Below, in pieces: positions 2,924-59,879 of a stretch of 64,000 nt of DNA. Position numbers and translations under genes: made by a program. The notes under the pieces were generated by a model. It saw only the letters and a list, made by a program, of their open reading frames with translations. It was not told where the DNA came from and did no database searches. Source of the stretch: Cyanidioschyzon merolae (Eukaryota); assembly GCA_000091205.1 (NCBI GenBank), contig AP006484.2. One strand, 5' to 3'. How positions within the stretch are numbered: position 1 is the stretch's first letter; the number at the start of each line of letters is the position of its first letter.

Positions 2924-2953
2924 CGCTGTTGCTGTTGCTGCTGCTGCTGCTGC
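2924..2953. repeat. (CTG/CTGTTG)n trinucleotide microsatellite
   Basis: The run gctgttgctgttgctgctgctgctgctgcg reads as poly-Leu in the artefactual ORF 2794-3072. Confidence 0.8.
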
Positions 2954-27674: not shown

Positions 27675-28097
27675 TGAGAAAACTATTCTTCGTTTTTTCC
27701 GGCAGCCGGCGATAGCGGCCCTACGGGATCCTCGGCTTCTATGTGCATACACTTCCTTGGAATTTCTATTTCTTCAAATGAATGCAGTTCATTATGCCCT
27801 TAGATAAGGAACTTCCCGGAGGCAGAGGAACTTGTGGAAGAACGACGAAGTGTACCCTGGTGTCACCATGCTGAAACCTGCAGCGATTCGCCCAGTGCAG
27901 CGATCACCACGTTTTTCAATTGGAAACACTCCTTCGATGGGGTAGAGCAACGGGAAGTACCAAGAAGTGAAAACCTGCTCGTCCCCGATAGATTCGACGA
28001 AAGTTCGAATGCAAGGAGAATGGTGAAATGCCACCTTTTCGAATAGAAGAACGTCGCCAAACGTTAGGGAAAATCCTTCAACGATTCGGAAAAGAGG

Positions 28098-30610: not shown

Positions 30611-31546
30611 TCATGACGTACCCAAATCATGGATACGGATGGGGTCAAAATAAGGGCGTTGCTGTGCAAGAGCAGCGCCTAAGTTTTGCCACCATTCCGG
30701 GAGAAGCGTCCGAGCGATCATACGGAACCATGGAGTCAAAGTGTCCGCCTGGTGCTGTAACAATTTGTAGATATCTTCCCGTGTGCATGCTTTCACTGCG
30801 GCGACCTCGTTGGCATTCGGCTCTACGCGCAATCCAGTGCCCGTACTGCCGTCCAGCACGACTTTCTTGCGTGCAAAGAGGATATAGTCGACTTCGTGCT
30901 CGCCCCAAGCGGTATTTGTACGACAAACAGCCCTATATCGGATGCGTGTCAAGTATGAAAGGTCGTCAGGATGGAGACCGGTCAGGCCAAGTTCTTGTTG
31001 AAGCTTTCTCAACGCAGCACGTTTCACGCCAAGCACCGGGTCCGAGACGTTGCACTCGTCCGGGTTGAAGAGAGGGTGCGAGCAGCAGGTGTTCGCCCAC
31101 AGCAGAGGAAACGTGACCTTTGTTGCCGCTCGCTGCTGCAGAATCAAGCGGTTGTCTTCGTCGAAGAGAAAAACCGAGAAAGCTCTGTGCAAAGGTAGGT
31201 TATTCGAGACGAGATGGGCGTCCGCTTTGGAACAGCGTCCGATGACCCGGTCTTCAGCGTCTGTGAGGATGAGCTCTTCCGCAAGCAGAGCCCGTTGTAC
31301 TTCATCTATTCCAGATATCTGAGCTTCCATTCCCAAATAGGATCCTGTGGAGCTCTTTGGATCGAAAAAAGTGCCCCAGAGTCTGCGGAACACCAGACCC
31401 CGACGATACATATGCACATTGCGCGCTAGAAGGTGCGAATGGATTTGCTCCAGCGCTCGACTTGGCAGCGATGGACAGCGATCCATGGCGGGCGTCAGCG
31501 CTGGCGTGCATATTTTTTTCGATGACAAAATGTTTCCATGGACCAT
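30611..31546 (-). CDS. IDI1: isopentenyl-diphosphate delta-isomerase, type I (Nudix fold)
   Basis: [41 protein letters not shown] and [15 protein letters not shown] plus [19 protein letters not shown] are collinear with human IDI1 ([74 protein letters not shown]). The core is preceded by an N-terminal extension of roughly 70 aa. Confidence 0.92.
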   Translation of the reverse strand: [311 protein letters not shown]

Positions 31547-32722
31547 GGATTCCAGATTGTGGGATGGATGGATGGATCTTGGCTATCGGCAAAGCGTCTT
31601 CCATAATGCAGCCTATCTCCAAATTCCATTATTTATGCTTCCTATAGGGTCTGCTGGTCGTTTTGTATATTCTATCGTGTGGCAAGTGCCTGCCTTGCTG
31701 CACCCGCAATAGCGCTAATACCGCTGGTGCAGATGCGTCACGGGGACAGATCGGCTTTGCCATACGACTGAGAGCGTCGCCCCGAGGCATGGAGCACCCA
31801 ACTCGAGTTCGGCTTTCGTTATCATTCTGGGCGCCTGCAAGCTCCGCAGCTAGACCTACTGCCTGCGACAGCGCGAAGCGATGTATTAGGAGTCCATCAG
31901 GATCGGCGCGATACCCAGATGCAGACTACCTGCTCCTAGTCCCGGAGTATCCTGCGTTGCGGAAGAGTCGCTCAGATCTCGCTAATGCACCTACCATTAG
32001 ATAGAGCCTGAAGCACTAGCCTGGCGGACTCGTTCGGCTCGCGGGACCTCTCGCCAGGAAGGTAAACTTTCGAAGATACGGAAACCTTTTCCCGTTTTTA
32101 AGGTTTACCATAAAGAAAGAAAAAAATTGTTATCTCGTTGCTGGTTATTGATTAGTCTCTGCACTTTGCTCTATGTAGCGTGGTCGATACGCGCACCTCC
32201 ATATCTGGCAGGCATGAGAAACAACGCGCTTTTCGCCTTTGATTGTGCATACGATCCTGACAGTTCGCCGGCTTGGTGACCTGACGGGCAAGTTGTATTT
32301 GCGTTGAAATAGTAGCAAATCATGTGTTTCATATTAATTGTTTTTCAACACTCAAGTGAGTGTATTCCAGTGATATTTCGCACGTCATAGAAGACGCGTT
32401 CAACGGGCGTTCTTTTTCAAGCAAAAAGGAAAATTATGGACATGGAATTCGGGCATCCGGGGGAGCGGGGGGCGGTGTCGCCTGCTGCGGAAAATACATA
32501 TGGAAAACAGTGCCGAGCAGTGCGGAACAGGAAAAGGCAGAGAAGCAGAAGAAGGGGGCCAGACGCCAAAGGCTGCAAGAAAGACGACGGAGCGACGAGA
32601 TAGTAGTGAAGGCCTCTCTTCATAGACATATCAAGGATCTGCTCAAGAAAAAAATGCAAGAGACCATCAGGAACCGCATCGAATCTTAATCCGTGAGTAT
32701 TATTAAGACTTTTTAAGGACTG

Positions 32723-34612
32723 ATGCATTTGGTGAAGGAGGTGTATCGCGACGTGACGAACAGCACAACAGCCGAGGTTCCCGAAGAATTTTCGAACAAG
32801 ACCATCATCTGCCACCTGTTGCTTGGCGCCGGGGAAAAGTCGAGGAGAAGCGAGCGATTACATGCCCTCCACGACAAATACACCAAGTACCGCTCCAGCG
32901 GTAATCTATACAGGGGAGACTTGCGTATTTATGAATACGGAGCGATGAAGTACCTCACGAATCTGAAGCACCATATGATCGTGAACCTCGAATGTTTCAT
33001 GACAAGCGACGTGTTTGCACAATGCCCGGGCCTCTCTCCTGAGGAAAGAGATGGGCCATCATCGACAGCATCACAAACGATTGTCGCGATGAACAGGAGA
33101 TTGAATTTGTCGACGGGCAGACATCACGCAGGAGAAAGAATGAAGCTTCTGTAATGCATTCGGTTGTACAAGAGAACCGTGCGGTTCTGGGGCTGGCGAA
33201 TCCAGCGGAAAATGTATTAGATGTAAAAAAGATAAAAATAGATTTTATCCCCTCATCTTGCGCTATTTCGCGTTTTTGGACCTAGAACCCGAACACAAAG
33301 CGGAGATGGAGCTGGTGGTGAGAAAAAATGAAGAGTCGCAGAAACGGAGGGCTTTCCTACTGAAGAAGCGCTTCGATGTTGTTGCGATATTCAAGATCAA
33401 GTGGCTCTTTGTGACAATCGACTCCAGCATCCTTCATGCCGTCATGAAGGAGACCAGTCGAGAGTTCGACGTGAGCAAATAGGAAATCACGGGTGAAAAC
33501 CGGGAGACTCATTGGAAGAAATTTTTCGATTTCAAACGTCTCAACAGGAGCAAGAAAAAGGTACTCTCGGGGATGATCGAAAGCGATGGGGTATCGATAT
33601 CTGTACACTATAGGCGCTTGAGGGCGGATCGTCCTGTTCCATCTTTGTTGTCGTCCTCGGCGAAGCATGAATATAAGAAGGATATAGATCCTGCGACGCA
33701 CGAGGTGCATGAGAACGACTGTGTCGTCGGAATCGACTGAGGGAACACGAATATTATCACCATCGCTGCATCTAGTTGTGGGGAAAATGATATCAACGAC
33801 AACTTACGGCGGAAAGGCGTGCAACTTTTAAATTACTAGAGAGCGAGATACTACCGGGAATCTGGGATAATCAATGCGAGGAAAAAAGTGAGACATGGAA
33901 TGCATGAGTGAAAGAGCACCTAGAAGCGATCAGCAAGGTGACGAGCAGCGGAGCGGACTCGCAAGCTTTTTGGGGATTCGTGAAAGTTCGCGCTGCTCAT
34001 TGGGAGGTGCTATGGAAAGAATATACAAAGCCCCGGTTGGCTTATCCACAGATGAAGCTGCACTGTGGGAAGCAGCGTGCATTCGACAACTTCTTCGATG
34101 AATTGAGCGCCCTCAAAGAGGAAAAGAGTCAGAGGTTCATAGTAGCTTATCGAGCAGGACGCTGGGTATTCGGAAAAGGGTTTTCACCCGCTCCACCCGC
34201 ATGAATGTACAAGGAGTGCGCATACCGTATTGCCACGACACCAATGGAAGAATTCCGAACGTCATACACACACCACGAGTCGGGGTGTGCATTCCAGCGG
34301 GTCGAGATGGAAAAGTGTCAGAGGAGCCCTGCATCCATAGAAAAGTACGGAGCGCTGACGGAAGAGCAAATGGAATAGAGGGCACGATTTAGAGGACTTG
34401 ATGCTTGCGTGAGTACAACCAACGAAAAGAATCAAATGGAGTTTGTGAACCAAGACTTTAATGCCGCTATCAATATAAGGAGATGCGCAGTGCCGGAGAA
34501 CAGACCTGCAGAGCTGATGAGAGAAAATCTTTGTGGGGTAGCCTCTGGGGGTAGAGTTGCACAAGGAGAAGTTGAAACCAGTAGTAGGGGGCTGTCAAAA
34601 AAAGACCGGTAG
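32723..34612 (+). pseudogene. TnpB/Fanzor-like (OMEGA-type RuvC + zinc-finger nuclease) gene, copy A, broken by frameshifts and an in-frame stop; the 5' boundary is uncertain and may reach ~32360
   Basis: The ORF fragments 33258-33482, 33895-34204, 34201-34392 and 34409-34612 are collinear with copies C and D. The RuvC-I-like block DCVVGID*GNTNIITIAA (~33720-33770) has a TGA inside GIDxG. The central block is MKEHLEAISKVTSSGADSQAFW...GKQRAFDNFFDELSALKEEKSQRFIVAY. The RuvC-III block is NQDFNAAINIRRCAVPENRPAELMRENLCG. A basic NLS-like segment KQKKGARRQRLQERRR lies upstream (32360-32689). Confidence 0.55.
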
Positions 34613-35556
34613 GCGTCTGCACATCAGTCGGTAGAAATATATAGTCTATGGCAGTCCGTATGCCACTCGCCACCACATTGCACCGGTTATGCAGCGTATG
34701 CCAATTGAAAGCCATTCGCTTCATATATGTATGCATCGGCACGTATGTATCAAATTGCTATTATTACGTGAAACTTCTGTTGAAGCTGATACGGATTTGC
34801 CAGCGACGAGTGCGCACTGTACGCAGTCTTCATGGGAACTCTGCGTCAATGCTTTGAGCTTCAGAGACATGCAATGCGCTAAGCGTCAGGGGTCTCGCAA
34901 GTACACGATCGAGGAGGTATCCGAGTGTCCACGCTGCATCGCAAGAACGCGATGCGCGACAATGCGGTTCATCTTGCGCTGAAGCACACATAAAAAATGT
35001 TTTCGGAACCAGAACGCGCAAAAGCGCGATCGGTGACCGACCGAAGGTCGTTTCTTACGCATCGAGTAGAGACCAAGACGCTGGATCATAAATTGGACCG
35101 TGGAGGAAAACGCCTCAGTCGAAGATTGACCTACTTCGAATGTCGCACCCGAAATCTGTTCTCCGAGCAGGGGAGCGATGCCTACTCAAAGAGTCTATGG
35201 CGCAGAGCAACGCTGTTTCAACCGAAACAGCGCTGCAGGCAGCGTTGTTGAAAACTGAGGCCGGCAAGGGCGAAGCATTCGAAGAGACACGCATCGCTGT
35301 GCAGCTCAGTGAATCTTTACAGTGACGGGAATCGGAAACTCAGGTTTGCCTGCACGTGCCTCGTTCGGCGACTTGCACTTTGTTCACCGGGAAATGCCCA
35401 TCCAGGCGTGCGCGTCGACCACAGAAAAAGGCGCTTTCCAGACGGCTGCAAAGTCCATGCAGACTCTGTGGGCTTGAACTGCGCGCAACTTCGGGGCTGT
35501 GTAATCTCGGGAGAGTCGGCGATGAAGCGCTCATCAATCGCGCGGTCCAATCGCCG

Positions 35557-38500
35557 TCATGAGCACGTACGCATATCGTTTCTGGTTGCACTCGCAGCAT
35601 CCACAAACGGTACATCCGGATTCAGAAACGGGTGCGCGAGCAACTCGGGGATGCTGGCCCTTCGAACGGGATCCCGCTGCAGACAACGTCGTAGCGTATC
35701 CATGAGCGCTGCGGCCGATGCCTCCGAGCCTATGCCCTGGATCCCAGCCACAGGCGGGTACGCAATGTCGTACGTCGGGTCCGTGATGCAGCGGAGCTTT
35801 TGAATCACGTTCAGGTGTGAGAATGGCGTGCGGCCGTACACCATTTGGTACAGGATGCAGCCGAGTGACCAGATGTCACTGGGGCGTCCCAGCTTGTAGC
35901 GGCGCCGCGAGGGAGCCGCCGCCGTCTCGCCGCTGGCGCCAGCGGAAGCTGCCTCGTTGGTATCCAGAATTGCCTCAGGGGACATGTAGTTCAGGGTACC
36001 CACCTGACTCTCGCGGACAATGTTGGTGGTGTCGTTCTGAATCGCCTTGGCGATGCCAAAGTCAATGAGCTTCAGGACACCCTCAACGAAAAGAAAGTTG
36101 GCTGGCTTGAGGTCGGAGTGCACGATGCGCTCTTCATGAATGGTATGAACCGCTTCCAGCATCTGCTGCCAGTAGAGACGCAGAAAGTTCGCATGCAAGG
36201 GTCGTCCAGCGTTGCGCAGTAACAGCCTCGCGAGGTCAATCTCGCCATACTCCATGACGAGGTAAATGAGACCAGCGTGCTCGCGCACCTCCGAAGCGAT
36301 CAGCTGGATGATATTGTCGCGGCCGCGGAGGCGCTGCAGCAACGCAATCTCGTTGCAGTAGCTCCGGAGCGTCTCGCGATCGGCCTTGCGGATGCGAATG
36401 CGTTTCAGCGCGAAAATCTTCCGGGTTCGCGCGCACATCACCTTGAACACCTTGGAAGATCCCCCACGCCCGACGATTTCTAGCTTGATGTACGGGTATC
36501 CACCAACGTGCACCACAGTGTCGGCGAGGCTTGGCGGTAGGCTCAGCAGGCTCGTGCCGTCACCACCGTCAGATGGAGCCACATTCTCCTTCCCAGCGTC
36601 CAGGCGTCGCAGCGGTCGACGGGGCGCCGCTGCAGCCTCAGCAACTGCCGATCCCTGCACGGCAACAGGGCCGTCGACGGAGCGCTGCATCCCGCGGGGC
36701 TGTTGCGCTGTCGGTGCGTGCGCTTCTCGCGCTGCGGGTGCCACGCACGCACCTGTTCTGATGGACACGTGTCCTGCTGATGCATCGTTTCCCGCGCATC
36801 GTCGCGATTTGCTGTCGATCGGGTTCGATGCCGCGGCAGCCGGGCGCTCATCCGGCGCCGCCTGGGTACCATCAGGCACACCAGCAGGCACATTACGAGA
36901 TATAATGTGAGGCGCTTGACTGGCTTCGGGGTCGCCTTGAGCGCGCTGCATCGGCCAGCGATCGGTCGTCGAGGATTGCCGGGCCGGCACCGCATCCACT
37001 GCGAGTTCGATTGCCTGTGGCGACTGCCGGAGACGCGTCCACGGCGGGGGTGTCGTCGAGGCAGCCGGATCCCGGTCGATGCGCGGTGATGAGAGCGCCG
37101 CCTCTGCACCGCCTGCAGCGTCGAGGGCAGTGCGAGCGCGATGCTCATCGCGAGACGCTTGGTGCGGTGGTGAGAGCGTGGCGCGCTGCTCTGGAGCAGT
37201 CTCCACGGAGCGATGCCAAGACATGGCTGTCGCTGGGGCGTCCTCATCTGGCGGTGGAATGCCGGCACCAGTGCCGGTCGCGGTGCTGAACCCGGTCAGT
37301 GCGGCTGGGTCGAGCGCGGTGGCGAGCCCCGCACCAGATGGTGCCTTGCCAACCCGCGCAGCAGGCTGTAACACATCCGCCGTGATCGTCAGCAGAGAGG
37401 CGGCATCGGGCGCGTCGGCGCTGTGGCCGCTGCTATGGTGCGCGCTGCGCACCACTTCTGGCACGGCGTTTTCAGGGTCCGATGACGCGCACAGCCAGAA
37501 ACACGTGCCGCGCATAAACTGCTCAGCTGCCTCTCGCCGAGCAGCTGCCTCCTCTTCGAGCTTTCGCGCCTTGCGCTCGTTTCCCAATCGCCGCTCGAAA
37601 CGCGCCCATAGCTCGCAGATGCGCGGGTCATGCTCGCCAATGCGCTCTGCTTTCAGGTAGCGAAAAGTATCTCGTAGCTCCTCGGCGTCCTCCTGCTCTG
37701 TGAGTGCCATTTGAAAGCGGACGGCTCCCAGCCAGAGCTCGACATAGTCGCTGTTTCGTCGGTGGCCTCGCGCAGGCACCGCCCGCGTTGCCCGTTCATA
37801 GAGCCGCTGCAGGAGGCGCAACACTGCACGCGCCCTGGCGTCGGTGGTGGGGGTACGCGGTGGCATCCCGCTCGGCAGGAGTGCCCGCTCCAGCGACTGC
37901 AGGAAAGACAGCCAAGTACTCGGACACGACGGCCGCGCGGCGAGTGTCCGCAGGTGCGTGGTGTCGGCACGGGCGAGCGCAGTCTCCAGCGCCTCGAACG
38001 CATATTCCCGATACGCTGGTGGAACCAGAGTCAGAGGCGAGGATCCGAACACCTCGCGGAACGTTGCAGTCCAAGACGCGCTCGGCAACGCGCTCAAGGT
38101 GCGTGGATGCGGCGCTACGGCTGCAGGTGTCTCTGTGCGCTGCGCTTGCGGCGACGTAGCCCCTGGGTCGACTGGTGCCGGTATCAGGTGATCTGCGGCA
38201 TCGCCTCCTGTGCCGACGGCCGCCACAACGTGCAAGCGCAGTAGCGGCGGCGTCATCAGGCCCTCGGCGCTTCGCGTCGGTGAGCACGGCGAGCGCGAAG
38301 CACTGCTGTGCGTCTGCTCCGCCGACTGGCGACGACCTCGAAGCTGCTGAACGCGTAGGCGCAACTTCTCCAGGGTCTCTCGTGTCGGGCGCTTCAGGTG
38401 ACTCGAAGCCGATGTCTCGCTCGTCGCGCTGCTGGCCTGGTCGGGTGCCTGCGCATACGCGTCCGTCGCCACTGCGTCCAGCTGTCCCGCACGGCGGTTT

Positions 38501-38730
38501 AACGCTTGCTTCGACCCCAAAACCCACTTTTCCGAGTCGCTGGCCTCGGGAGTCGCATCACGGCCGCCTGACATGTAGAAATCAAAGCCAAAGCGACGAG
38601 CGGTTGCCGCCTTGCCGGAGCCAGAGCTGCCGCAACGACCTAGAGAGCGACACAAGGGCACTGCTGCTGTGGACGCGGGCCACAGCGCTTCTGCTCCGCC
38701 CCGATAGCGGGCGTTCAAAATTTCGGGCAA
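35557..38730 (-). CDS. MPS1: Mps1/TTK-family dual-specificity protein kinase (spindle-checkpoint kinase), with the kinase domain at the C-terminus
   Basis: YIKLEIVGRGGSSKVFKV...LKRIRIRKADRETLRSYCNEIALLQRL, IVHSDLKPANFLFVEGVLKLIDFGIAKAIQNDTTNIVRESQVGTLNYMSPEAI, DIWSLGCILYQMVYGRTPF and IPELLAHPF match the human TTK kinase domain almost motif for motif. The ORF is 1057 aa, with a long low-complexity Ala/Pro/Arg-rich N-terminal region. Confidence 0.9.
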   Translation of the reverse strand: MPEILNARYRGGAEALWPASTAAVPLCRSLGRCGSSGSGKAATARRFGFDFYMSGGRDATPEASDSEKWVLGSKQALNRRAGQLDAVATDAYAQAPDQASSATSETSASSHLKRPTRETLEKLRLRVQQLRGRRQSAEQTHSSASRSPCSPTRSAEGLMTPPLLRLHVVAAVGTGGDAADHLIPAPVDPGATSPQAQRTETPAAVAPHPRTLSALPSASWTATFREVFGSSPLTLVPPAYREYAFEALETALARADTTHLRTLAARPSCPSTWLSFLQSLERALLPSGMPPRTPTTDARARAVLRLLQRLYERATRAVPARGHRRNSDYVELWLGAVRFQMALTEQEDAEELRDTFRYLKAERIGEHDPRICELWARFERRLGNERKARKLEEEAAARREAAEQFMRGTCFWLCASSDPENAVPEVVRSAHHSSGHSADAPDAASLLTITADVLQPAARVGKAPSGAGLATALDPAALTGFSTATGTGAGIPPPDEDAPATAMSWHRSVETAPEQRATLSPPHQASRDEHRARTALDAAGGAEAALSSPRIDRDPAASTTPPPWTRLRQSPQAIELAVDAVPARQSSTTDRWPMQRAQGDPEASQAPHIISRNVPAGVPDGTQAAPDERPAAAASNPIDSKSRRCAGNDASAGHVSIRTGACVAPAAREAHAPTAQQPRGMQRSVDGPVAVQGSAVAEAAAAPRRPLRRLDAGKENVAPSDGGDGTSLLSLPPSLADTVVHVGGYPYIKLEIVGRGGSSKVFKVMCARTRKIFALKRIRIRKADRETLRSYCNEIALLQRLRGRDNIIQLIASEVREHAGLIYLVMEYGEIDLARLLLRNAGRPLHANFLRLYWQQMLEAVHTIHEERIVHSDLKPANFLFVEGVLKLIDFGIAKAIQNDTTNIVRESQVGTLNYMSPEAILDTNEAASAGASGETAAAPSRRRYKLGRPSDIWSLGCILYQMVYGRTPFSHLNVIQKLRCITDPTYDIAYPPVAGIQGIGSEASAAALMDTLRRCLQRDPVRRASIPELLAHPFLNPDVPFVDAASATRNDMRTCS

Positions 38731-39664
38731 TCGATGCAGGCGCTCACGACATCATGAACATTCTAGAACGTAATTGTACAGAGCAAACATATGCCCGCAG
38801 CGGGACGCGTTCCATCATTCCTGTCCGATATCGCCGATACCGTGCGCGAACACGCCCGGATACCAGCGCACCGACGTGTGCTCCACCGCAGATGCGCTCA
38901 CGCTGTACCGACTCCAGAACGGTTTTTCTTTAAACAACGACAGCTTCGTGGAGCCAGCGACCTGCCGAGTGCCGGACGTTCACCGAACGACACCTCGATT
39001 GCGAACAGGAGGTAGCGCGTACCCCAATAGCCGGTATCCATAGCACGTCACAGCTACCTGTAGGGCGTCGAAGGCGCATCCCTTGGGGGCATACGCACAA
39101 CTGGCAGTACGGATGCACGTATGCATACGGCCGTCGATAGAGGCACGTCGATCACGTCCATTGCATCGAAGGATGGGCCGATCCGTGTACGTGCAGGTAA
39201 CGCGCACATTCTGTACCTTGGGCGAGAGCGCCTCAAAGCGACATGCGCTGGGCGACAGCACGGCGTGTTCGCAGTGTCGTGACTACCACGGATGTGCTTG
39301 CAATGACACCGCGCGACGACTAAAGCGCATCCGCCCAGTTCGCAGCGATTATCCGCAAGCAGCCTCTGATGTCGGCGGGCACCCAAATTTTCGCAAAACG
39401 CGCAATACGTCCTCCAAATCACTGTTGCCTGTTGGCGGCGTCTCGATGGCGACAAGGATGGAACTGGTACGCTTCGATCTGACGGGGCGGATGCATCTGC
39501 CCGGAGACGGAATGCAGGACACCACTGCGGGACCCAGGTCCCGGGCACGCTCTATGGACTTTGTCGAAACACGTGAGCGAACGTCCAGAAATGTTTATTA
39601 AAGTCACACGAGGTGCTGCACAGGTACGCAGCTCGAGGTCGATGCCGCCATGCACGTCTCGTCC

Positions 39665-40387
39665 TCAATCCGAATCCGATGGTGCGTCGCGGGACTCGGC
39701 ATCAGGGTGCAGGCTCACGCCGGTGATCCGGTGCCGCCGAAGCGTTTTCGCAAGGCGCTCCAATGAAAAGCGCACTCCAGCGCGGCCCGCAATGACCCAC
39801 TCGCCCAGACCGGCAAAGGTGCGCACGACCTGTTGGTTCCGGATCAGCAGAATCGATGGTAGGACCTGGACGCCGAGCCGCTCGCACATGGACGGAAACC
39901 GTTCCGCCTCAGCGACCCAAAAGCGCGTCTCCAGATGCTGCTGTGCCAGGGAACGCAACGCGTGTGCGAGCGCATCCTGCAGCGGCTGGGTTTCGGGCGC
40001 TGTTCGCAAACGCCAAAACACGCCAACAACGCGCTCTGAGGATCGGCAGGCCTCGAGGAGCGCCTCCTCGTCATCAAGTTCATGCAGCCTACCATGCCCG
40101 AGCGCGCACCATCGGGAGCGCGCAGCCGCTGCTCGCTTCAGCGCCTCCAGACGACGCTCGCGCAGCGCTTCGAGCTCGGGGTCCGTCTCGGTCGTCGTCG
40201 CAGAAGCGCCGAAAGAGGCGCCGCGCTCCTGCTCCCGAAGCTCCCCGTCCAGGATAGCCTCCACACGCTCGGCAACTGCCTCGACAACACGCTGCACTGC
40301 GCTTTGGGAGCCAGTCGCAGGCTCTTTCCGGGCAAATCCCTGCGTGCCCCCGAGCGCTGCCACACTCGACGACTGCGACGTCGGCAT
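39665..40387 (-). CDS. TXNDC9: thioredoxin-fold phosducin-like protein (TXNDC9 / PhLP3 / Plp1 family)
   Basis: VVGVFWRL...LRSLAQQHLETRFWVAEAERFPSMCERLGVQVLPSILLIRNQQVV parallels human TXNDC9 [35 protein letters not shown]. An acidic coiled N-terminus precedes it. Confidence 0.7.
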   Translation of the reverse strand: MPTSQSSSVAALGGTQGFARKEPATGSQSAVQRVVEAVAERVEAILDGELREQERGASFGASATTTETDPELEALRERRLEALKRAAAARSRWCALGHGRLHELDDEEALLEACRSSERVVGVFWRLRTAPETQPLQDALAHALRSLAQQHLETRFWVAEAERFPSMCERLGVQVLPSILLIRNQQVVRTFAGLGEWVIAGRAGVRFSLERLAKTLRRHRITGVSLHPDAESRDAPSDSD

Positions 40388-41109
40388 GGCTCCAGTTTCG
40401 ACAGCACCTTGGCCGTTGTTGCGTTGCTTCCCACGCCCGAGCGCTGATCAGTGTCAAACAGGCACGCTGTGACACCCTGGTGCTCCGAGCACCAACGCAG
40501 GTACCGCCTACTGGTGCCAGACGATCAAAAAAGTCCCGAGTCACCACACACCGCCCTCTGATCACAGCGCCTGCCTCTAAGCGTCGACGCTGCCTTCTCG
40601 AGTTGCCGGTGTGAGTAGCCCCAAGTTGCCGCTAGAGCACACTCACAAGTCCGTGGAATCCTATAGACGGCGCTCTTACGGGAACACTCCACAGACGCGG
40701 CAGTGATGGCCGTACGCGCGCATCCGCTGCACGTTCGATTTTACCATCGCATGCAGGATGTGCACACTGGGGTGCGGGGTGCCCGCTTCAGAATCGCCCC
40801 TCGCTGGACACGGGCAGAAGATGGCCGTCTGTACACCTAGCGCCGCGGATCTCGGTGTACGCCGTCGAGCGCTGCGCGCCAGTACAGTACAGGTCGCACT
40901 GGGAACGCATCTTGGAGCGAATCAACCTTCTCGTGAGAGCATCTGCATAAAGCTACGTCTTGAGTTTCGTAACCAATTGGTTAAGGCCTCCGCTCAACAG
41001 TCAGCGACAAATCATGCTTTTGCGAGTCCTCCGGAGAATAAGCTGCAGAAAAATATGCACGAACAGCGGCATGATATGCAAAATGGTTCCGCGTGGAAGC
41101 GTTCTTTGA

Positions 41110-44100
41110 TTACCCGAAAAGAACAGCTACACCTTCCAGCGCAGTATCGTCGTCACCATTGATCGATTCATCTTCAAGATCCATGGTATACAACTGTGTC
41201 CGCTTTTTCCAACTCTGCAGTAGCCTTACCGAAAGCGGCCTGTGCTTCTGGGACGCCATCTTCGATGAGGGGAACGCCATCGCAGCTTCGTTCAACTGCG
41301 TGCTCGCCCCGTGATTGAAGCTGCGTCTCACAGCCACGTTACCAAGAGCTCGCATACGCTCGCCACCATTTTCGCCGGGAAACATCGAGGCGTTCGGATG
41401 CTTACTAGGGAGCTCGCTCGTAGTGAAACATGCCGGACTGAAGCCACGCCTGTAGAGTTCATCGTTGACTGCGGCGTGCACCTTTCGCACGTCTTCGGGG
41501 CGGCTGTACCATCTCTCGTCTGTCAAGGCCCTAGCGATCGAGTTTTCCAACTGCAGTAGCGACTCCGTGTCTATTGCCAAATAGCCCTCCGCCGGGTGTA
41601 TCCAGAAGCTCAAGTGCTTTCGCAGGAACGCGAAAGCTTTCCGAGACGCACTCTCAAAATGCCAGTCCAGACACTTGCGCAAAAAATCTCGGGCCCAATT
41701 GAATAACTGCACGCGTCGGCTGCAGCTTTCGAGCTTCAGCATCGCGACAGCTAACTCGACGAGCGCAACAGCGGCTTGGTCAAAAGCTTCGTTTGCGGAA
41801 GATGCTTCGTTCGCGTGGGGAGCGCCATGGAGAACCTCATCCATCGTACTGGATTCCTCATCGGAAACCTCTTCATAAGCAAGTTGACCAATGCGTTCAG
41901 CAGTTGCCCGCAACAGCGGTAACCAGATCTCCGTCACATCAGTTTCCCAGATATCACTGCCCTGGTGTGCTTGTGCCTCGCATTGGAGCAGAGTCTTCAT
42001 CACGTGACGCACAATGAGGGCTAGATACTCGATGTCAACTTGAGGAATCCCTCTTAGACAGATTTCTCGATAAAATTTCAGGGCATCCGGATCAGGATCG
42101 AGCGCAAGCATCCGCTGGAAGAGAAGCAGGCCTCGTGCGGAGATGTGAATGAACGAACGACGCGTTTTCAGCAACTCCTTTCGGTGCTGCCTGGAGTCGG
42201 CGATCGCCTCAGGAAGCAATCCGGCTCTGAGCATCCATTCCATGACCAACCGGTACCACTGAGCGATCTCGATTCGAGAAGGGGCAAGCACTGAAATGTC
42301 TCCACGACCATCAGGGCGTAGGCTGAATAAATGGTTCAGAGCAGCTACCATTTGAGGAAGCGTCGTTGGGAGCAGTTCTCCAAACATGACGGTTTGCTTC
42401 CATATGCTATGTTTCATGCTTACGCTTAGCATTTGTTCAAACAAGGTCAAAAGTTGAAGAAGACAGGTGCGATTGGTGTCTGCATCAGCTGAGGGTGCCA
42501 AGAAAGCTATAAGGAAGCGTTCCGGATCTCGAAGGACTTCGTGCTGAAGAGCCATTGTTTTCCAGATTCCCAAGGTCTCCTCTAAAAGCGCGTTCAAAAC
42601 AGGTATGCTCTTTTCCGGAGAGTCGAGAGAACACACGATAACTGGAACGCACTTCAAAAGCGAGCATCGAGCTGGAAAGGGCATCGGTGCCTCACGCAGC
42701 GCTTGTTGGATGGACGGCAGCAGTACTTGTGCGCCCGAAACTGTTTCGCTCCCTTCTGACCGCAAGAGAAGCGCTAAGATTCCTCTACACAGAGCGTCAA
42801 ACCACTTTTCCCTCCGATGCAAGCCCATTGCAGACCACCGAGCATGCTCTGTGCATGGTAGCTGTTGGATACGCTCAAGCACTCGCAGTGCCGCTTGTAT
42901 GGTGCGTATCTGTGCGCCTTCGATTCTGGCGAGCAGCGGGGCACACCCGAAAAAAACATGCAAAATCATATGAATCTTATTGGCATCTTGGTCCAGGTCA
43001 AGCGTATCCACCATGCTCAGGACAAACTCAACTCGTTCACCAAGCTGCAGAACTTGAGTCAGTCGAGCGTTTTCCTCGCCTCCAACCTCAGAGCTAGCGC
43101 CTCGCGAGGATGTCTTAGAAACCCCTGGAGGTTTCGAAACACCAGATCCTCGTCCAAGGCTCGGAAGCAATGGCGCGAGGACCTCACTCATTGTGAAAAA
43201 CATTACTTCTCGTGTCTCATCTAACAGCATTTCGATAAACAAGGCTGATTCGGCATCGCTTGGGTACTGCCCGTTTCGAACAGAAAGCAGTCCCCTCCAG
43301 AAACTATGCAAATGTGCCGGCTCTTCGCGAAAGCAGAATTGCTCCATGACCGGGCCTGTGCTTCTGCGATTTCTGTGGCAATCCATGCGGTCTACAGCAC
43401 GCGTAACGACCCAGTCCAGACACGCATCTCGCCAATTCTGACAGATTTTTCGAAGAAAATCTCGCGTTCGACTCCTCAGAGACGAATTCAGTTTTGGCTG
43501 CTCAGCGTTGCGCGACAGAACAAAACTCATGAGGCGCCAGCGCGGATCATTTGCGTCCAAGACCGAATTTTCCACGATATCCTTTCCTGTGAACAAATAG
43601 GCAGGTAGGCTTGTGTCCATGCAGCACCGCATCCACGCCGCATCGAGCAGCACAACGACGCACTGCGCGGTGAGAACCGTCTTCAGCACCTGATCGCGGC
43701 AACAAAAAGCCAGCGCAAGTTCTGCAATCGAGGCCCACGGGTGGCTCACTAGTCGCCCTAACAGAAGTATGAATGATGACCATATTGCAGGGCGTTCTTG
43801 CAGATGAGTGAGCGTCGACTCGAACGCGAGAAAAGTGAGTTCTATGACCGCTTGAAGCAAAGATAGCCTTTCCTCCCATCTGATCGGAGCATCTATGAGC
43901 AATCCGACGTCACCTGTATATGCTTCGTCGAAACATATGACGAAGCTTATAAGTGTTTCCAAGAGAGAGCCCAGCACGTCACGCTGCTTCGGCAGCATCG
44001 GCTGTGCCCTGGTGATCCAGCAACCGAGCGCTTCGATGGCTAACCAGTCGTAATCTGCACAAGCTACAAGCCGGTCTCCAAACATTTGTTCAAATCTCCG

Positions 44101-45069
44101 CCTGAGAAACAGCACCAGGCTTGTCGGTACGTCCGCCTCCAACAGAAGCTCGACTGGAAAACCTTCCAACAGCTTCAACAGAAGCTGAAGCGATGCCCTA
44201 AATGCCGGTCCGGGGTCCGTGAATTCGCAGCGTAACATATGGAGCGCCACAAGAACGATACGGCTGCCTTCCTGCACAAGACGCTCACCGATCGCATCAG
44301 CAGTCAGCTGAACAGTTGCCGCGCCTGCTGACTGACGTATTCCCGTCTCTTCAGCCACTGCGGATAAGATTTCTTCAATTATCGTAGAGAAAATCTCCAT
44401 AGATTCAGCGCTTTCCAGAGGACTTCCGAGCAAATGATCCAGTACCCGAGAACCATAGCTGCTCTCCCAATACTGCACCACAATTCGAGCGAGAAACTGG
44501 GCGACCTTTCTCCGCTCTCCACAAGAAAATGCTCTCTTTCCAGCTGCTAGTGTGCCATGGCAGTGATTCCATAACTCAACTGCAAAAGCGCAGAGCGTCT
44601 GACACATATCCAGGGTGTCCGTACGCGCGCTTAGAGCCTCAGCCTGCGAACGCTCGATAAGGTCGACCAACAGCTGAAACCCATACTGTACAGCGGCCGT
44701 TTCCACTACTCTAGCAAAGTTCGAGTCTGCATCTGGAACAGCAGATCGTGTCAAACTTTCATAGCATAGATTAGCTGCTATGAGGTCCCGTCCCAGCGCG
44801 AAAATCGTGTCTGCGGAGAAAAACTTTGACACATTACAGAGGAACGTATGGGCTTGTCTGCGGCTCTCTCCGGTGCTTTTTCCCCAGTGCAGCACTGCCA
44901 GAGCTGAAACAACTTCCGCCGTAAGATCAGACGCCATTTCCGTTGCAAATCCAGAAATAGTCCCCTTGGCGCTCAGAAGCCACGCAGCCACCACCGCTGT
45001 TCTAAAGTGGAACGACGTCGCGCGCGTACAGTAGTTGCGAGAAGCCCGCCCTAGACCGGACGTCTCCAA
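41110..45069 (-). CDS. large HEAT/ARM-repeat protein, karyopherin-beta (importin/exportin)-like; the start is probably at the internal Met near 44937
   Basis: The ORF is 1319 aa and helical-repeat throughout. An importin-beta N-terminal-like segment (DLTAEVVSALAVLHWGKSTGESRRQAHTFLCNVSKFFSADTIFALGRDLI) resembles the exportin IBN_N pattern. The first ~44 codons of the ORF track entry read through the 3' end of the Fanzor-like copy C, so translation more plausibly starts at MASDLTAEVV. Confidence 0.6.
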   Translation of the reverse strand: METSGLGRASRNYCTRATSFHFRTAVVAAWLLSAKGTISGFATEMASDLTAEVVSALAVLHWGKSTGESRRQAHTFLCNVSKFFSADTIFALGRDLIAANLCYESLTRSAVPDADSNFARVVETAAVQYGFQLLVDLIERSQAEALSARTDTLDMCQTLCAFAVELWNHCHGTLAAGKRAFSCGERRKVAQFLARIVVQYWESSYGSRVLDHLLGSPLESAESMEIFSTIIEEILSAVAEETGIRQSAGAATVQLTADAIGERLVQEGSRIVLVALHMLRCEFTDPGPAFRASLQLLLKLLEGFPVELLLEADVPTSLVLFLRRRFEQMFGDRLVACADYDWLAIEALGCWITRAQPMLPKQRDVLGSLLETLISFVICFDEAYTGDVGLLIDAPIRWEERLSLLQAVIELTFLAFESTLTHLQERPAIWSSFILLLGRLVSHPWASIAELALAFCCRDQVLKTVLTAQCVVVLLDAAWMRCCMDTSLPAYLFTGKDIVENSVLDANDPRWRLMSFVLSRNAEQPKLNSSLRSRTRDFLRKICQNWRDACLDWVVTRAVDRMDCHRNRRSTGPVMEQFCFREEPAHLHSFWRGLLSVRNGQYPSDAESALFIEMLLDETREVMFFTMSEVLAPLLPSLGRGSGVSKPPGVSKTSSRGASSEVGGEENARLTQVLQLGERVEFVLSMVDTLDLDQDANKIHMILHVFFGCAPLLARIEGAQIRTIQAALRVLERIQQLPCTEHARWSAMGLHRREKWFDALCRGILALLLRSEGSETVSGAQVLLPSIQQALREAPMPFPARCSLLKCVPVIVCSLDSPEKSIPVLNALLEETLGIWKTMALQHEVLRDPERFLIAFLAPSADADTNRTCLLQLLTLFEQMLSVSMKHSIWKQTVMFGELLPTTLPQMVAALNHLFSLRPDGRGDISVLAPSRIEIAQWYRLVMEWMLRAGLLPEAIADSRQHRKELLKTRRSFIHISARGLLLFQRMLALDPDPDALKFYREICLRGIPQVDIEYLALIVRHVMKTLLQCEAQAHQGSDIWETDVTEIWLPLLRATAERIGQLAYEEVSDEESSTMDEVLHGAPHANEASSANEAFDQAAVALVELAVAMLKLESCSRRVQLFNWARDFLRKCLDWHFESASRKAFAFLRKHLSFWIHPAEGYLAIDTESLLQLENSIARALTDERWYSRPEDVRKVHAAVNDELYRRGFSPACFTTSELPSKHPNASMFPGENGGERMRALGNVAVRRSFNHGASTQLNEAAMAFPSSKMASQKHRPLSVRLLQSWKKRTQLYTMDLEDESINGDDDTALEGVAVLFG

Positions 45070-46072
45070 CTGATGTGCAGACGCCTCCCAGTGCTTTTGA
45101 AGCGGCCACCCACTACTGCTTCCAACTGTTTCTCATATAGTTCAACTTTTAGAGGTTGTCCAACAAAGTTCTCTTGTGTAAGCTCTGGAGGTCTTCTCTC
45201 CAGCACCGCACAATTCCTTATATTGGTTGCGGCGTTAAAATCTCGATCCACGAGCTCCATCCGTTTCTTGCCATCACTCCCTGTACTTACCAATGCAAGT
45301 AGCCCATGAACTTTCGCTCTCCTTTCCATTTGCCCCTCCGTCAGCGGTCCATACTTTTCTACATCCTCAGGGCTCCTCTGGCACTTTTCTATCTCCACCC
45401 TCAGGAGTGTACAGCCCAGCTCGTGGTGTGTGTAGGACGTTCGAAACTCATCTACAGGTATCGCAACAAAACGTCTTGCGCACTCATTGCACGTTCTTGT
45501 TGACGGAACTGATGTACACCCTGTTTGGGTCTTCCATTGCCCTACTCCGTACGCTACTACGAGTCTCTGACTTTCATCCTCCTTAAGGGCACTCAACTGA
45601 TTGAAAAAGTTGGCAAATGCCCGCTGCTTCCCACAGTACAGAATCATACGCAGACGAATCCATCGATTCCTTGTATACTCCTCCCACAGCGCATCACAAT
45701 GCGCAATGTGAACTTCCATAAACTCCCGAAAAAAGCTTTAAAGTCCGCTCCTCGGCTCGTCACCTCGCTCATAGCTTCCAGGTGCTCTTTCACTCCTGCA
45801 TTCCACATCTCAATTTTCTTCCTCGCATTCATGATTTCCGATTCTCGATAGTATCTTGCTCTCGAGAATCTCAACAGGCGCATGTCTTTCTGACGTAAGT
45901 TGCAGTTCGTACCATCTTCCGCGCGCGTGGGTACTGCGATGGTTATGATATATGTGTTCCCGGGCTCTGCACCAACGACAAAGTCGTTATCTGGCACCTC
46001 CTGCGTCGCGGGACCCGCCTCCTTCTCATGTTCATGACTCGCCGCACCAACGACGAAATCGTTCTTCTGCAC
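45051..46072 (-). pseudogene. TnpB/Fanzor-like nuclease gene, copy C (N-terminally truncated; the C-terminal 222 aa are still one ORF)
   Basis: The minus ORF 45051-45719 has a zinc-finger/RuvC-III tail (TCNECARRFVAIPVDEFRTSYTHHELGCTL...MELVDRDFNAATNIRNCAVLERRPPELTQENFVGQP). The upstream ORF 45644-46072 has a duplicated RuvC-I-like block (DFVVGAEPGNTYIITIAV) in which the Asp of GIDxG reads Glu. Confidence 0.6.
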
Positions 46073-46167
46073 TTTCTGCGTCGTAGGATCCGCCTCCTTC
46101 TCATCTACACGCTTCGTCGCGGGCGAAGCCGAATGCAGACCAGAAGGCGAGCCCTACCGCGCAGGAG

Positions 46168-47097
46168 GTGCAGAAGAACGATTTCGTCGTTGATGCGAAC
46201 CCCGGGAACACGAATATCATACCCATCGCAGCACCCAAGTATAGGGAAGATGCTAACACCGGCAACTTACGTCAGAAAGACATGCGTTTGGTGAAGCCCT
46301 CAAGGGCTAGATATTACCGAGAATCGGGAATCATGAATGCATGGAAGAAAATTGAGACGTGAAACGCAGGAATGAAAGAGCACCTAGAAGCTATGAGCGA
46401 GAAGACGCGCCGAGGAGCGGACTTTCGGGCTTTTCTGAAATTCATGGAAGTTTGTGTTGCTCATTGGAAGGCGCTGTGGGAAGAATATACAAAGCCCCGG
46501 TGGGCCCGTCTGCGTATGAACTCGTACAGTGGGAAGCAGCATGCATTCGCGAACTTTTTCAATCAGTTTAGCGCTCTCAAGGAGAATGAAAGTCAGAGGC
46601 TCGTAGTAGCATACGAAGCATAGAGCTCGGCGTCGAAAAAAGGGTGTAGGCGATCTCCAACGACAAGAACGTACAAAGAGTGCGCATGCCGTTTCGTCAC
46701 GATACCGATAGATGAGTTCCGAGCGTCGTATACAAACCACAAATTGGGGTGCACGCTTCAGAGGGTCGAGATGGCAAAGTGCCAGCGGAGCCCTGAGGAT
46801 ATGAAAAAGTACAGAGGGCCGACGGAAGAGCAAATGGAAAGGAGGGCGAGACTTCGAGGATGGCTTGCACTAGTGAGTTCAACTACCAATGGCGAGAAAC
46901 GCATGGAGTATGTGAACCGAGATTTTAATGCCGCTATCAATATAAGGAGATGTGCGGTGATAGAAAGAAGACCACCAGAGTTGGCACGAGAGAATTTCGT
47001 GGGGCAACCTTTCAAAGTGGGACTATATGAGAAACAGTTTGAACCAGTTGTGAGTGAGCGGTACAAAAAGACTGGGAGGCGTCTGCTCATCAATTAG
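46168..47097 (+). pseudogene. TnpB/Fanzor-like nuclease gene, copy D (head-to-head with copy C; frameshifted)
   Basis: 46168-46362 has RuvC-I-like FVVDANPGNTNIIPIAA, where the Asp position reads Asn. 46372-46623 has MKEHLEAMSEKTRRGADFRAF...GKQHAFANFFNQFSALKENESQRLVVAYEA. 46744-47097 has FVTIPIDEFRASYTNHKLGCTLQRVEMAKCQRSPED...MEYVNRDFNAAINIRRCAVIERRPPELARENFVGQP. Confidence 0.6.
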
Positions 47098-47144
47098 ATA
47101 TAGCTTGTTCCGGTCGGGTTTCCCGCCGCTACTGTGTACTGCCG

Positions 47145-50100
47145 GTGACGTTCGACTTTCGAACAGCGTTCGTTGTCGTGGGTGGTTTTCGTGAGTGCAA
47201 AATGGCTTTTTGCGATTTGAGTGTCTTCACGACGGAACTGTCGTGCGCTACAGGTAATGCACGTCTTCGCAGTCGCCAGGCAACCCTGTTCACCTTGAAG
47301 GGTCGCGTTCACAGGACTGCGTCGGATCTTCGCAGGACTCACAAAATCAGTCGTTTGGTGAGCATGAACGTTAGCGAAACACTCACAAGCACCAAAGCTG
47401 TTCAAAATTTGGAGCCATTAGGCACCAAAGAGAGCGTCCTGGATGCTGCAGTCTCGGCGAAAAAAGTCCAAGCTCCGGGCACCGCAGCACTTTACTTTGC
47501 TTACGGCAGCAATATGTGCCCCCGAGTACTGGGACCCGACACTGATCTTCTCTATTTGTTGCGACGAATATCGTCGTCGTCCTGGGAAACCGGAGAGCCG
47601 GCCGTACTGGAAGGGTTCAGCCTTGAGTTCAGCTGCCCTGGCGTGGAAGCCCTCGGAGAACCAGCATTCGCCAACATTGTGCCTGCCGTCGAGGCCAATT
47701 CTGGTGCACCCCGTGAGCAGTATGATACAGAGGTTCACGGTGTTTTGTTTCGATTGACACAAGCAGAATTAGACCGCATCCTATTATCGGAAGGGGTCGG
47801 GTTAGGGCGCCAGCGCGTCGTCAACGTCACAGTACGCACCTACCGCAACGTACTCTATGAAAATGTCAAGACAGTCGCGTATGTATCATGGGAGATACGG
47901 AATCCACAAAAGCCCTCGTCACGTTACCTCGAGCTCATCCTGGAAGGCGCTAATTACTTTCACTTGGATATTCGGTATGTTCGAACGCTTCTGCGCAAGG
48001 CCTCCGGTGAGTACACCTCTGCCGCGCTCCCAGCCACGAATAATATTCAGAGCGACATGGTGAAAATGCTTCAGGACATACAGGTTCCCCAACAGATTGT
48101 GGCGTTTTATCAAGAAATGCACCACCTCAAGGGAACGGTTCGATTCATCATGCCTCCGATGCTTGACGAGAGCTCACGGGCGACTAGGCCGCTGTTGCTG
48201 TTCTTCCCCGGCCTAGATGGCACTGGCATCAGTATTGCTACACAGCTTAGAATGTTTCAGTCAAAATATGATGTTCGCATTTTGGTGATTCCTCGGGACA
48301 ACCGAATGCCGCTGGATGAATTAGGGAACACAATTCTGGATTGTTTGGAGTGCCTCTGGAAACAAAAGACAGAGGTACTGATGTCGAAAGAGGTATCGCA
48401 CGAGCCTCAGGTTGCACCGGATGTTCTCGCTGAGAGCATGGGCTGCTTATTGTGGTTTGAGTGTGTAAGAGCTTTTCGCAGACGAGCGAATCTCAAATGC
48501 GGCGCTGTTGACCCCTGCGAAAGCCCTACTCGCGCTCTGGCAAGGCACGTCATGCTGGTGAACCCAGCAACTAGTTTCAGCAAATCAGCTCTCGCTCCAG
48601 TTTGGGAAAATATCTCTGCATTACCCGACCCCGTTTACCACGTTGCTCCGTACATATTTAGCCCTATTCTGATCGATCTGCTCCAGCTTTTGGCAGAGCC
48701 CAGTATGGCGTTTCAGTCACTCCAGCGAATGGGTGTCCTCCGCGAAATCTTGCCCAAGGAGACGCTCCGTCATCGGGTGCGACTCATTCGCGACTTTCGC
48801 TATGCAGCCGATGACTTTGCGGCTGCAGCAGAGTACGGTGCTGAGCAATACACAATCGCAGTTGCAGCGAATGATGCTCTGCTGCCCTCTCTAGCAGAAT
48901 CAGAGAGTCTCCTTGGAAAGCTTACGCTGCCTTTTCTCGAAATTCAAAAAACGGGGGTCCGGAGGATGAGTAGCCTTCCTGCTACTGTTGTTCGGTACGT
49001 TGCAACTCAAGGTGGGCACGCGCTGCTCCAGTCGGGGAGCTTCGATGCTTACCAGCAGCTCATGGTTAAGGCTGAACGCGCACATGATCGCATTCGAAGA
49101 GGTCTTTTGGAACGAATACCCAAAGCTGCGAAAGATTCACATACCCGTTCGTCTCCGAGCCAGCATACAACGGACGTCACCGACAAAACAATGGGCTCAG
49201 GTTTCGTAACTGAAACCCTCGACAACGACCAAACACTTGTTGCCAGGTCGCCAACAAATGGACAGCTGGATCGATATGCGATACGGCAGAGGACTGGCTC
49301 GTCCGTGCGGGATTCAACCACGGGCTCACGGTTTTTCCCGAGGAACAAGTTCGCGCTCGGCGAGACGCGGTGGCAGCTTCAACGACAGAGGCGTCTGCTT
49401 TCGCCAATTTTTCTGGATTTCGACAAGGTACCCTTATCATCATCAACGCGTCCGGTTCTGTTTGTTGGAAATCATACCCGTTTGGGGCTCATCGATTTAC
49501 CATTTCTGATTGACCAAGTCTGGAAGAGCCGGGGTGTATTCGTGCGGGGTCTGGCACATCCCATTATATTCGCGATGCAGCAGCGGGGTCAGTCTCAATG
49601 GGAAAGTGCGGGAGATCGGCAGCGCACGCGAGCCCGCGACTTTGCGACGAATCTCGCTGCACTAGGCGCTGTATCTGTATCACCGCGAACGGTTTACAGT
49701 CTCCTTCGGAACGGCGACTCTTTATTGCTTTTCCCAGGCGGCGCCCGTGAAGCATATAAGAGACGTGGCGAAAATAATCAAATTTTTTGGCCGAAGGATG
49801 AAGAGTTTGTGAGACTTTGTGCACGCCTCGATGCTGTTATTGTGCCTTTTGCCTCTTTTGGCCCTGATGACAGCTTCGACGTCGTGGCGGACGGAGAAGA
49901 ACTCTTGAACGTACCTTTTCTGGGCGGCTTTATTCGCAATCAGTTTGAAAGAATGGGTGTTCGCGCTGATATTGTGCGTGCTTGGCGCTCGCCGCTTTCC
50001 GAGCAGCCCTCTGATGCGGCGATCGCAGACCTGTTGATCCCGCTGCTGCGACCGCGGCCGCCACTGCGACTCTACTTCCAGTTTTTCGATCCGGTATATC

Positions 50101-59570: not shown

Positions 59571-59879
59571 GCCAAGGTACATTCCGTCTTTCTTCCGCAA
59601 GTCCTTCTCCCCCGGGAAGGTCCTCACGTAAGAGTAGAAAGAAGTGCGTTCATTGTAAAGAAACAAAAACCCGAGGAAAAGTATTGAGAAGCAAGTCGGG
59701 GATCCCGGAGGCTTGGTGTCGCCGGATTTCCACAAAAAAAAATGTGAAAATCCTCTCCTCGCCGACCATCGAGCGAAGAAGAGCGAGTGACGAAGAGGAA
59801 GAAGAAATGTATTGGGGGATATGCAAGAAAAGATGTTTGTCCAACGGTACGATGACGAGACTGTAATGGCACAGAGGGC

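Follow-up and report, generated by a model that had tools for sequence, protein, structure and literature searches.

Repeats on chromosome 2 of Cyanidioschyzon merolae 10D as decayed copies of the Fanzor1 element CMe-1A

That Fanzor proteins act as nucleases guided by RNA has been known since 2023. Fanzor1 and Fanzor2 were defined by Bao & Jurka (2013, Mobile DNA 4:12, PMC3627910), and that paper lists CMe-1A as the sole Fanzor1 family of Cyanidioschyzon merolae; its protein, CMe-1, was among the founding Fanzor1 sequences. CMe-1A is described there with a 3169-bp consensus, a 734-aa protein and about 150 copies, every copy having about 80% identity to the consensus; terminal inverted repeats (TIRs) are absent, target site duplications (TSDs) were not determinable, and the superfamily was given as unknown by the original authors (PMC3627910). 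The first 635 bp, at the 5' end, are common to the element TE-N2_CMe, and some copies elsewhere are still intact, the coding capacity being called long-lasting (PMC3627910). For other Fanzor1 proteins it is established that they cut double-stranded DNA under the guidance of an omegaRNA (structures 8gkh and 9ce*/9cf*; PMC10530073). Here we analysed a 64,000-nt stretch of C. merolae 10D chromosome 2 (the window) and conclude that the repeats in it are almost certainly decayed copies of CMe-1A. An initial annotation of the window had read these repeats as TnpB/Fanzor-like. That assignment was right, and is narrowed to Fanzor1 by the match to CMe-1A, by the sequence profile and by the fold, but the family is not a new one, as it was published for the C. 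merolae genome in 2013. Nor are Fanzors rare in eukaryotes, as had been stated, since 3655 have been reported across this domain, rhodophytes included (PMC10530073).

Five proteins encoded by the window (ATG-start open reading frames, ORFs) exactly match BAM78869-BAM78881, for example CYME_CMB050C. Alignment of the window with itself (blastn) revealed copies of about 1 kb at 33658-34631 (+), 46044-45066 (-) and 46142-47168 (+), with pairwise identities of 72-77%. Rebuilding a consensus ORF from these three copies, as the initial annotation had proposed, gave a clean result: the majority consensus of the three-way alignment is a single uninterrupted ORF of about 330 aa, which contains all the protein blocks quoted in that annotation, and its product is nearly identical to published CMe-1. 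Among these blocks, VVGID*GNTNIITIAA was recovered in copy A, and both MKEHLEA...GKQRAF.NFF..LSALKE.ESQRLVVAY and [NQR]DFNAAxNIR[RN]CAV were found as quoted. In a tblastn search with a long family member, these blocks appeared in all three copies and in the three short pieces described below, and two additional weak matches emerged at about 26.1-26.6 kb and 51.1-51.6 kb. The published 3169-bp CMe-1A consensus and the 734-aa CMe-1 protein, taken from the supplement of Bao & Jurka, were mapped on the window by blastn and tblastn, which placed the large copies as follows.

31520-34631, plus strand: copy A, full-length CMe-1A (consensus 1-3095, 79.4% identity over 3126 nt, blastn)
45026-46132, minus strand: copy C, 5'-truncated CMe-1A (consensus 2106-3135, 86.8% identity, blastn)
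46111-47135, plus strand: copy D, 5'-truncated CMe-1A (consensus 2109-3133, 83.6% identity, blastn)

All three large copies named in the initial annotation are therefore real, but their coordinates were off; copy A, for example, is a full element at 31520-34631 and not a gene at 32723-34612. It begins with a 5' TE-N2_CMe-like module (consensus 1-635), followed by a leader without coding function and by the remnant of the Fanzor1 ORF at about 32444-34643, in which tblastn covers aa 21-734 of CMe-1 over three frames. Copies C and D adjoin head to head at about 46111-46132, inside a zone of 75-nt repeats, and the arms of the inverted repeat were found. The intervals of all pieces derived from Fanzor1 elements, those described further below included, add up to about 10 kb, or roughly 15% of the 64-kb window.

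Membership of Fanzor1 was established by profile and by fold. A phmmer search of the Protein Data Bank (PDB) with one family member gave no match, and a diverse profile was needed. Among 1.84 billion representative proteins (a 50%-identity library), HMMER searched exhaustively yielded 1329 relatives, many of them 600-700 aa long, and alignment A3 comprises CMe-1 and 79 diverse relatives at 27-42% identity (80 sequences). With A3, hmmsearch of the PDB returned exactly three sequences, all of them solved Fanzor1 proteins, and no TnpB or Fanzor2 chain was reported in this search.

9cf0: PpFz, Fz1 of Parasitella parasitica, E=3.3e-20 (A3 hmmsearch)
8gkh: SpuFz, Fz1 of Spizellomyces punctatus, E=6.6e-12 (A3 hmmsearch)
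9cer: GtFz, Fz1 of Guillardia theta, E=1.5e-7 (A3 hmmsearch)

For the fold, a first AlphaFold run on a shallow alignment of 80%-identical sequences was unusable (predicted local distance difference test, pLDDT, 46), whereas the AlphaFold2 model of family member P0014 obtained with the diverse alignment reached a pLDDT of 84.7 and a predicted template modelling score (pTM) of 0.80. The top seven matches of this model in a Foldseek search of the PDB were all SpuFz, PpFz or GtFz (E=1.2e-11 to 2.8e-8). Cas12o, ISDra2 TnpB (8h1j) and Cas12f came next at about 1e-3 to 1e-2, weaker by about five or more orders of magnitude; the significant E-values in the fold search belonged to Fanzor1 chains only, and no Fanzor2 chain was reported. 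These results bear directly on the possibility that the repeats derive from a bacterial-type TnpB (IS200/605 or IS607) or from a Fanzor2 acquired recently from a prokaryote or virus, or that they represent contamination. Such an origin would fit the RD-NAA-NI block, which is common to TnpB, and a weak Pfam match to Cas12f1-like_TNB, but we consider it highly improbable: profile and fold both match Fanzor1, with ISDra2 TnpB 8h1j reaching just E=3e-3 by fold; the protein has 734 aa, with a long N-terminal half of Fanzor1 type that is conserved in relatives; the 3.2-kb element holds no ORF for TnpA (Y1 or serine recombinase); the flanking genes are bona fide genes of C. merolae chromosome 2; and the copies, about 80% identical to the consensus and fixed across strains, are hence old.

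The catalytic motifs follow the same pattern. Fanzors are marked by DPG in RuvC-I and by a RuvC-II Glu that is shifted towards the C-terminus (PMC10530073). The RuvC-I consensus in A3 is GADPGNT, in which D431 and G433 are invariant (80/80) and P432 is kept in 75 of the 80 sequences; the window copies are damaged at this motif, reading D-stop-G in A, EPG in C and NPG in D. At the canonical RuvC-II site A3 has V-A-Y-G, with G570 invariant, and E603 in VDEFRTS is invariant as well (80/80) and retained in A, C and D. The suggestion that VVAY reflects the rearranged catalytic site of Fanzors is thus upheld by A-Y-G at the canonical site and by the invariant Glu in VDEFRTS. In RuvC-III, R671 occurs in 78 of 80 sequences, as does D672, while N674, A676 and N678 are nearly invariant, and the window copies read NQDFNAAINI, DRDFNAATNI and NRDFNAAINI.

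Several results weigh against the identification of these repeats as a mobile element with an RNA-guided Fanzor1 nuclease. The Pfam and NCBIfam libraries gave nothing significant for the ORF pieces, the consensus or full family members, and the best Pfam match of the consensus was Cas12f1-like_TNB (formerly OrfB_Zn_ribbon), at E=0.5 over 11 residues of RD-NAA. The C4 zinc finger (CxxC...CxxC), part of the original Fanzor/TnpB motif definition (PMC3627910), is not recognizable either, there being no conserved CxxC pair between [TS][TS] and RD in the 80 relatives. As for a guide RNA, RNAalifold on 61 tails gave no pairs in the 3' tail, hairpins drawn by hand at the 3' end had a covariation of 0.120 against a shuffled mean of 0.121, and a scan of folding-energy z-scores had no outlier at the 3' end. 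Finally, the element has no ORF for TnpA (Y1 or serine recombinase) or another transposase, its TIRs are absent, and alignment of the element ends revealed no clear TSD.

With regard to the Pfam results, OrfB_IS605, the TnpB core in Pfam, had no match in the copies, the consensus, the family members or the relatives, and Cas12f1-like_TNB matched relative P0164 at E=0.002, below threshold. The initial annotation had put forward a Pfam search as a check that could refute its reading; used in that way, the search would wrongly have rejected a Fanzor. The failure of Pfam alone to give a significant assignment is also what would be expected of an ordinary dispersed host gene family, or of segmental duplications, that resembled RuvC by chance. 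We attach a negligible probability to this explanation, as the profile matches in the PDB reach E=3e-20 and are exclusively Fanzor1, the fold matches reach E=1e-11, the D/E/D triad is invariant, and hundreds of copies with defined ends lie in unrelated genomic contexts.

The CxxC zinc finger claimed in the initial annotation did not survive closer comparison, as the consensus reads KECARRF and has a single Cys only. In CMe-1 the region runs TSYTHHELGC...EKC...GLLALVST, with one common Cys (position 655, present in 59/80). Judging from the aligned sequences, CMe-1 belongs to a large Fanzor1 clade, represented by at least 80 diverse relatives, that appears to have kept the D/E/D triad and lost the zinc ribbon. 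The position of the ribbon in CMe-1 (residues 606-660; about 46720-46890 in copy D) is taken up by a beta-hairpin and helices in the AlphaFold model.

We propose that CMe-1A is a mobile element of roughly 3.2 kb whose single ORF encodes a Fanzor1 protein, the eukaryotic descendant of the accessory TnpB of IS200/605-IS607. Fanzor1 genes reside in transposons, which have often captured a transposase; the CMe-1A family is multi-copy and dispersed, with defined ends and a single ORF. By analogy with other Fanzor1 proteins, intact CMe-1 would bind an omegaRNA, the transcript of the 3' end of the element that carries its gene, and would make an RNA-guided cut in double-stranded DNA beside a short target-adjacent motif, probably with a RuvC site composed of D431 (DPG), the shifted E603 (VDEFRTS) and D672 (RD-NAA). 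An omegaRNA of CMe-1A is thus assumed by analogy, and we infer guidance by this RNA from family membership and from the intact catalytic signature of the consensus; the way in which the element transposed is likewise an inference. As CMe-1A encodes no transposase, it must have been mobilised by some other activity. Amplification to about 150 copies took place under purifying selection on the protein and was followed by decay.

At the 3' end of the element, a conserved 12-nt block (CCACTACTGTACA) follows the stop codon and has GC-rich palindromes on both sides, within the last 70 nt or so (45026-45095 on the minus strand; 47066-47135). Two alternative terminal palindromes, hairpin-like in appearance, occur (...CGTTTTTCTTTTGAAAGGCG and ...CGTTCGACTTTCGAACGGCG). 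The sequence flanking the elements is T-rich on the 5' side and often begins with TT(T/C/G)G on the 3' side.

All copies in the window are dead, and none of its eight Fanzor-derived pieces can make a protein; they are genomic fossils. The initial annotation had described A, C and D as inactivated by frameshifts, by a stop within GIDxG and by Asp-to-Glu and Asp-to-Asn changes, and these lesions are borne out on the consensus ORF. Copy A carries seven frameshifts and ten stops relative to this ORF, including a change of Pro432 to a stop within DPG, and keeps the codons for D431 (33735), E603 (34250) and D672 (34454). In copy C the first 390 codons or so are gone, a +2 frameshift occurs at 45734 and D431 is replaced by Glu (GAG at 45967); E603 (45449) and D672 (45242) are kept. 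Copy D, shortened by the same 390 codons or so, is interrupted by stops at codons 485 (46360) and 572 (46621) and bears the substitution D431N (AAC at 46198); it keeps E603 (46714) and D672 (46921).

A copy in the window could nevertheless be a working or domesticated Fanzor gene, for example as a truncated protein with a host function encoded by the 222-aa ORF in copy C (45051-45719). This ORF is open and coincides with a gene call on the syntenic metagenome contig L084, copies C and D lie directly upstream of host genes, and intact copies of CMe-1A exist elsewhere (PMC3627910). We consider this very unlikely all the same, because the 222-aa ORF begins past the +2 frameshift and has no RuvC-I at all, the RuvC-I Asp is Glu in C and Asn in D, both of these copies are without the N-terminal 390 aa or so, and A has 17 disabling lesions. 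Moreover, the mismatch of the window copies, including third positions (23%), is as high as that of non-coding DNA (19%).

The consensus protein has 311 close homologues, with 60-88% identity among the matches listed; they come from metagenome assemblies (JGI, ENA) and carry uninformative names. A relative is encoded by 304 metagenome stretches. At the first, second and third positions of codons, the mismatch to the consensus is 12.4%, 9.5% and 18.8%, respectively, compared with 16-19% in non-coding sequence, although the asymmetry could be inflated as the metagenome loci were picked by protein similarity; the window copies alone have the same trend (15.6%, 13.2% and 22.8%). The lower mismatch at positions 1 and 2 indicates that part of the divergence arose under purifying selection, in agreement with the remark on long-lasting coding capacity (PMC3627910). 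No ORF spanning the whole protein was present in loci L001-L091 or in the window. Contig L084, which is 99% identical to the window over 32363-50273, has C, D and the part of A that it reaches; as it carries the same insertions, these are old and common to strains. Empty sites in other strains were not found, the sole spanning contig being L084, with the insertions, and the other contigs breaking at the repeats.

The genome of C. merolae is among the most compact eukaryotic genomes. The window is gene-dense and intronless, with 53% GC, features that had at first pointed to a kinetoplastid, an origin rejected on the strength of the exact protein matches to C. merolae 10D. The host genes in the window include those for EF-Ts, DNA polymerase delta subunit B, a HECT ligase and a protein kinase; Rfam and tRNA scans of the window gave no matches. 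The elements appear to be placed in these surroundings in a non-random way. Over 53 distinct loci (L001-L083 and the window), we scored the first ORF of 200 aa or more that follows the 3' end of CMe-1A. It had the orientation of the element in 37 of 51 loci and the opposite one in 14 (p=0.002 for a test against 0.5, an excess that would shrink against a length-weighted null), the distance to its ATG being 5-200 nt in most cases. On the 5' side, the closest ORF was divergent in 13 of 14 cases. From the co-oriented 3' neighbours and the divergent 5' neighbours it follows that the elements occupy the gaps of divergent promoters. The window copies fit this pattern: a co-oriented host ORF starts 89 nt beyond the 3' end of copy C (45026; ATG at 44937), another co-oriented host ORF starts 67 nt beyond that of copy D (47135; ATG at 47202), and the 5' end of copy A is beside a host gene start (31520/31486). 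Tentatively, this may reflect targeted integration at the 5' ends of genes, co-option of element ends as promoters or 5' untranslated regions, or selection, although we hold the first two to be rather doubtful. If true, targeted integration or co-option would be a new aspect of the biology of Fanzor1 elements.

In addition to the large copies, the window contains short derivatives, two older relics and an isolated module fragment. The short derivatives are the following.

12991-13495, minus strand: F1, short derivative, consensus 793-971 joined to about 2830-3083 (blastn, tblastn), aligning with F2 and F3
27332-27758, minus strand: F2, short derivative, aa 1-54 of CMe-1 joined to aa 648-724
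59642-60114, plus strand: F3, short derivative, consensus 869-962 joined to 2831-3083, with the same junction as F2

Thus all three C-terminal fragments of the initial annotation exist, but at shifted coordinates, and they also hold the leader and the start of the ORF, brought together with the C-terminal part by one common internal deletion. In F1-F3 consensus positions of about 790/870-975 (the leader and the first 55 codons or so) are fused to about 2830-3145 (the last 100 codons or so and the tail), and a 571-nt alignment of F2 with F3 spans the deletion junction. The same structure was found in loci L040, L063 (about 8290-8815), L075 and L039. F1-F3 are members of a family of non-autonomous deletion derivatives of about 0.5 kb, rather than independent truncations.

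Two further pseudogenes had been overlooked in the initial annotation.

24871-26812, plus strand: old Fanzor1-like pseudogene, nearly full length (tblastn with P0151: aa 10-648, 26-33% identity, E=2e-36/37)
50944-51991, minus strand: second old Fanzor1-like fragment (tblastn with P0155 and P0151: 26-31% identity, E=1e-21 to 8e-23)

Both are full of stops and have 25-38% aa identity to diverse Fanzor1 relatives. Among its many stops, the first relic still displays the motifs DPRL, FRTTHTH and FVWCDFT, and the second has EDPGIQDI, FRTINMH and WCDS. The relics differ from CMe-1, and the WCD motif that they have kept is lost in CMe-1. They are remnants of one or more older Fanzor1 lineages, and the first belongs to another subfamily than CMe-1. 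The remaining piece is a fragment of the 5' module.

3090-3215, minus strand: isolated 5'-module fragment, TE-N2_CMe-like (consensus 4-128, 75% identity over 126 nt, E=9e-18, blastn)

The TE-N2_CMe module (consensus 1-635) is often inverted or partial relative to the ORF part (consensus about 660-3169), as in loci L003 (5979-9135), L047 (1-4922), L005, L023, L041, L043, L060 and L061. The consensus published for CMe-1A may therefore combine two units.

The pair formed by copies C and D (45026-47135) is a palindrome of about 2.1 kb that has two right ends. A palindromic architecture also exists at an unrelated locus (L077 3-1673 / L078 13-1708), to which the alignment runs through the junction at 80% identity. 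This suggests that a palindrome of the C/D type is either a derivative that spread or a recurrent rearrangement. Directly before the RuvC-I strand lies the 75-nt (25-aa) tandem repeat (KHEEKKEAGPATQEVQDNDFVVGA), at about 45970-46132 in the window and at 1719-2168 in L002. The number of units rises from one in the consensus to two in copy C and six in L002, and every unit duplicates the first RuvC-I strand. Elsewhere in the window, a gene for a 240-aa thioredoxin-like protein and a kinase gene (35588-40874) have a second genomic context in metagenome contigs L085/L086, and the thioredoxin-like gene has a paralogue in 10D (BAM78915) that is also of 240 aa and falls in the same 90% cluster. These observations suggest a segmental duplication.

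As a discovery, the presence of these repeats has little weight, Fanzor1 in C. merolae having been published since 2013. Its value is one of calibration, in that a reading of the raw sequence recognised a Fanzor with a rearranged RuvC that is unseen by Pfam. Incremental leads are the element ends at the starts of host genes, a Fanzor1 clade devoid of the zinc finger, and the recurrent palindromic and deletion derivatives.

Compared with known systems, CMe-1 shares with bacterial TnpB (ISDra2, 8h1j) and Cas12f the RuvC core and the WED/REC/RuvC plan (fold E=3e-3 and 7e-3), and with TnpB also the RD-NAA motif. In TnpB, however, the RuvC-II Glu is located about 50 residues before the zinc finger, and RuvC-I has D-hydrophobic-G instead of DPG. 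With a length of about 400 aa, TnpB is devoid of the long N-terminal half, and in IS200/605-IS607 it is partnered by TnpA. Fanzor2 (e.g. ApmFz2, in IS607-like elements) and CMe-1 both have the DPG motif and the shifted Glu, but Fanzor2 is nearer to TnpB and is accompanied by a serine-recombinase TnpA (PMC3627910); CMe-1A is without a TnpA. The solved Fanzor1 proteins (SpuFz1 8gkh, PpFz1 9cf0 and GtFz1 9cer) have the same fold as the P0014 model, with template modelling (TM) scores of 0.47-0.59 (query-normalised), and their significant profile similarity to CMe-1 takes in the FTGxIxTDG strands, the DPG of RuvC-I, the shifted Glu of (D)EFRTS and the RuvC-III motif RD-NAA, although sequence identity is only 12-20%. 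SpuFz and PpFz keep a CxxC...CxxC zinc ribbon (TSSVCPRCSS, TSSFCPKCES) that the CMe-1 clade is without, whereas CMe-1 has a helical insert at the position of the ribbon and the 25-aa tandem repeat before RuvC-I. For CMe-1A itself, the consulted parts of the original description make no mention of head-to-head pairs, of a short derivative with a shared deletion, of an inversion of the TE-N2 module or of ends beside gene starts (PMC3627910). In all other respects compared, the window copies agree with it: they belong to the same family in the same genome, have 79-87% nt identity to the consensus and a like level of decay, and share with CMe-1A the absence of TIRs.

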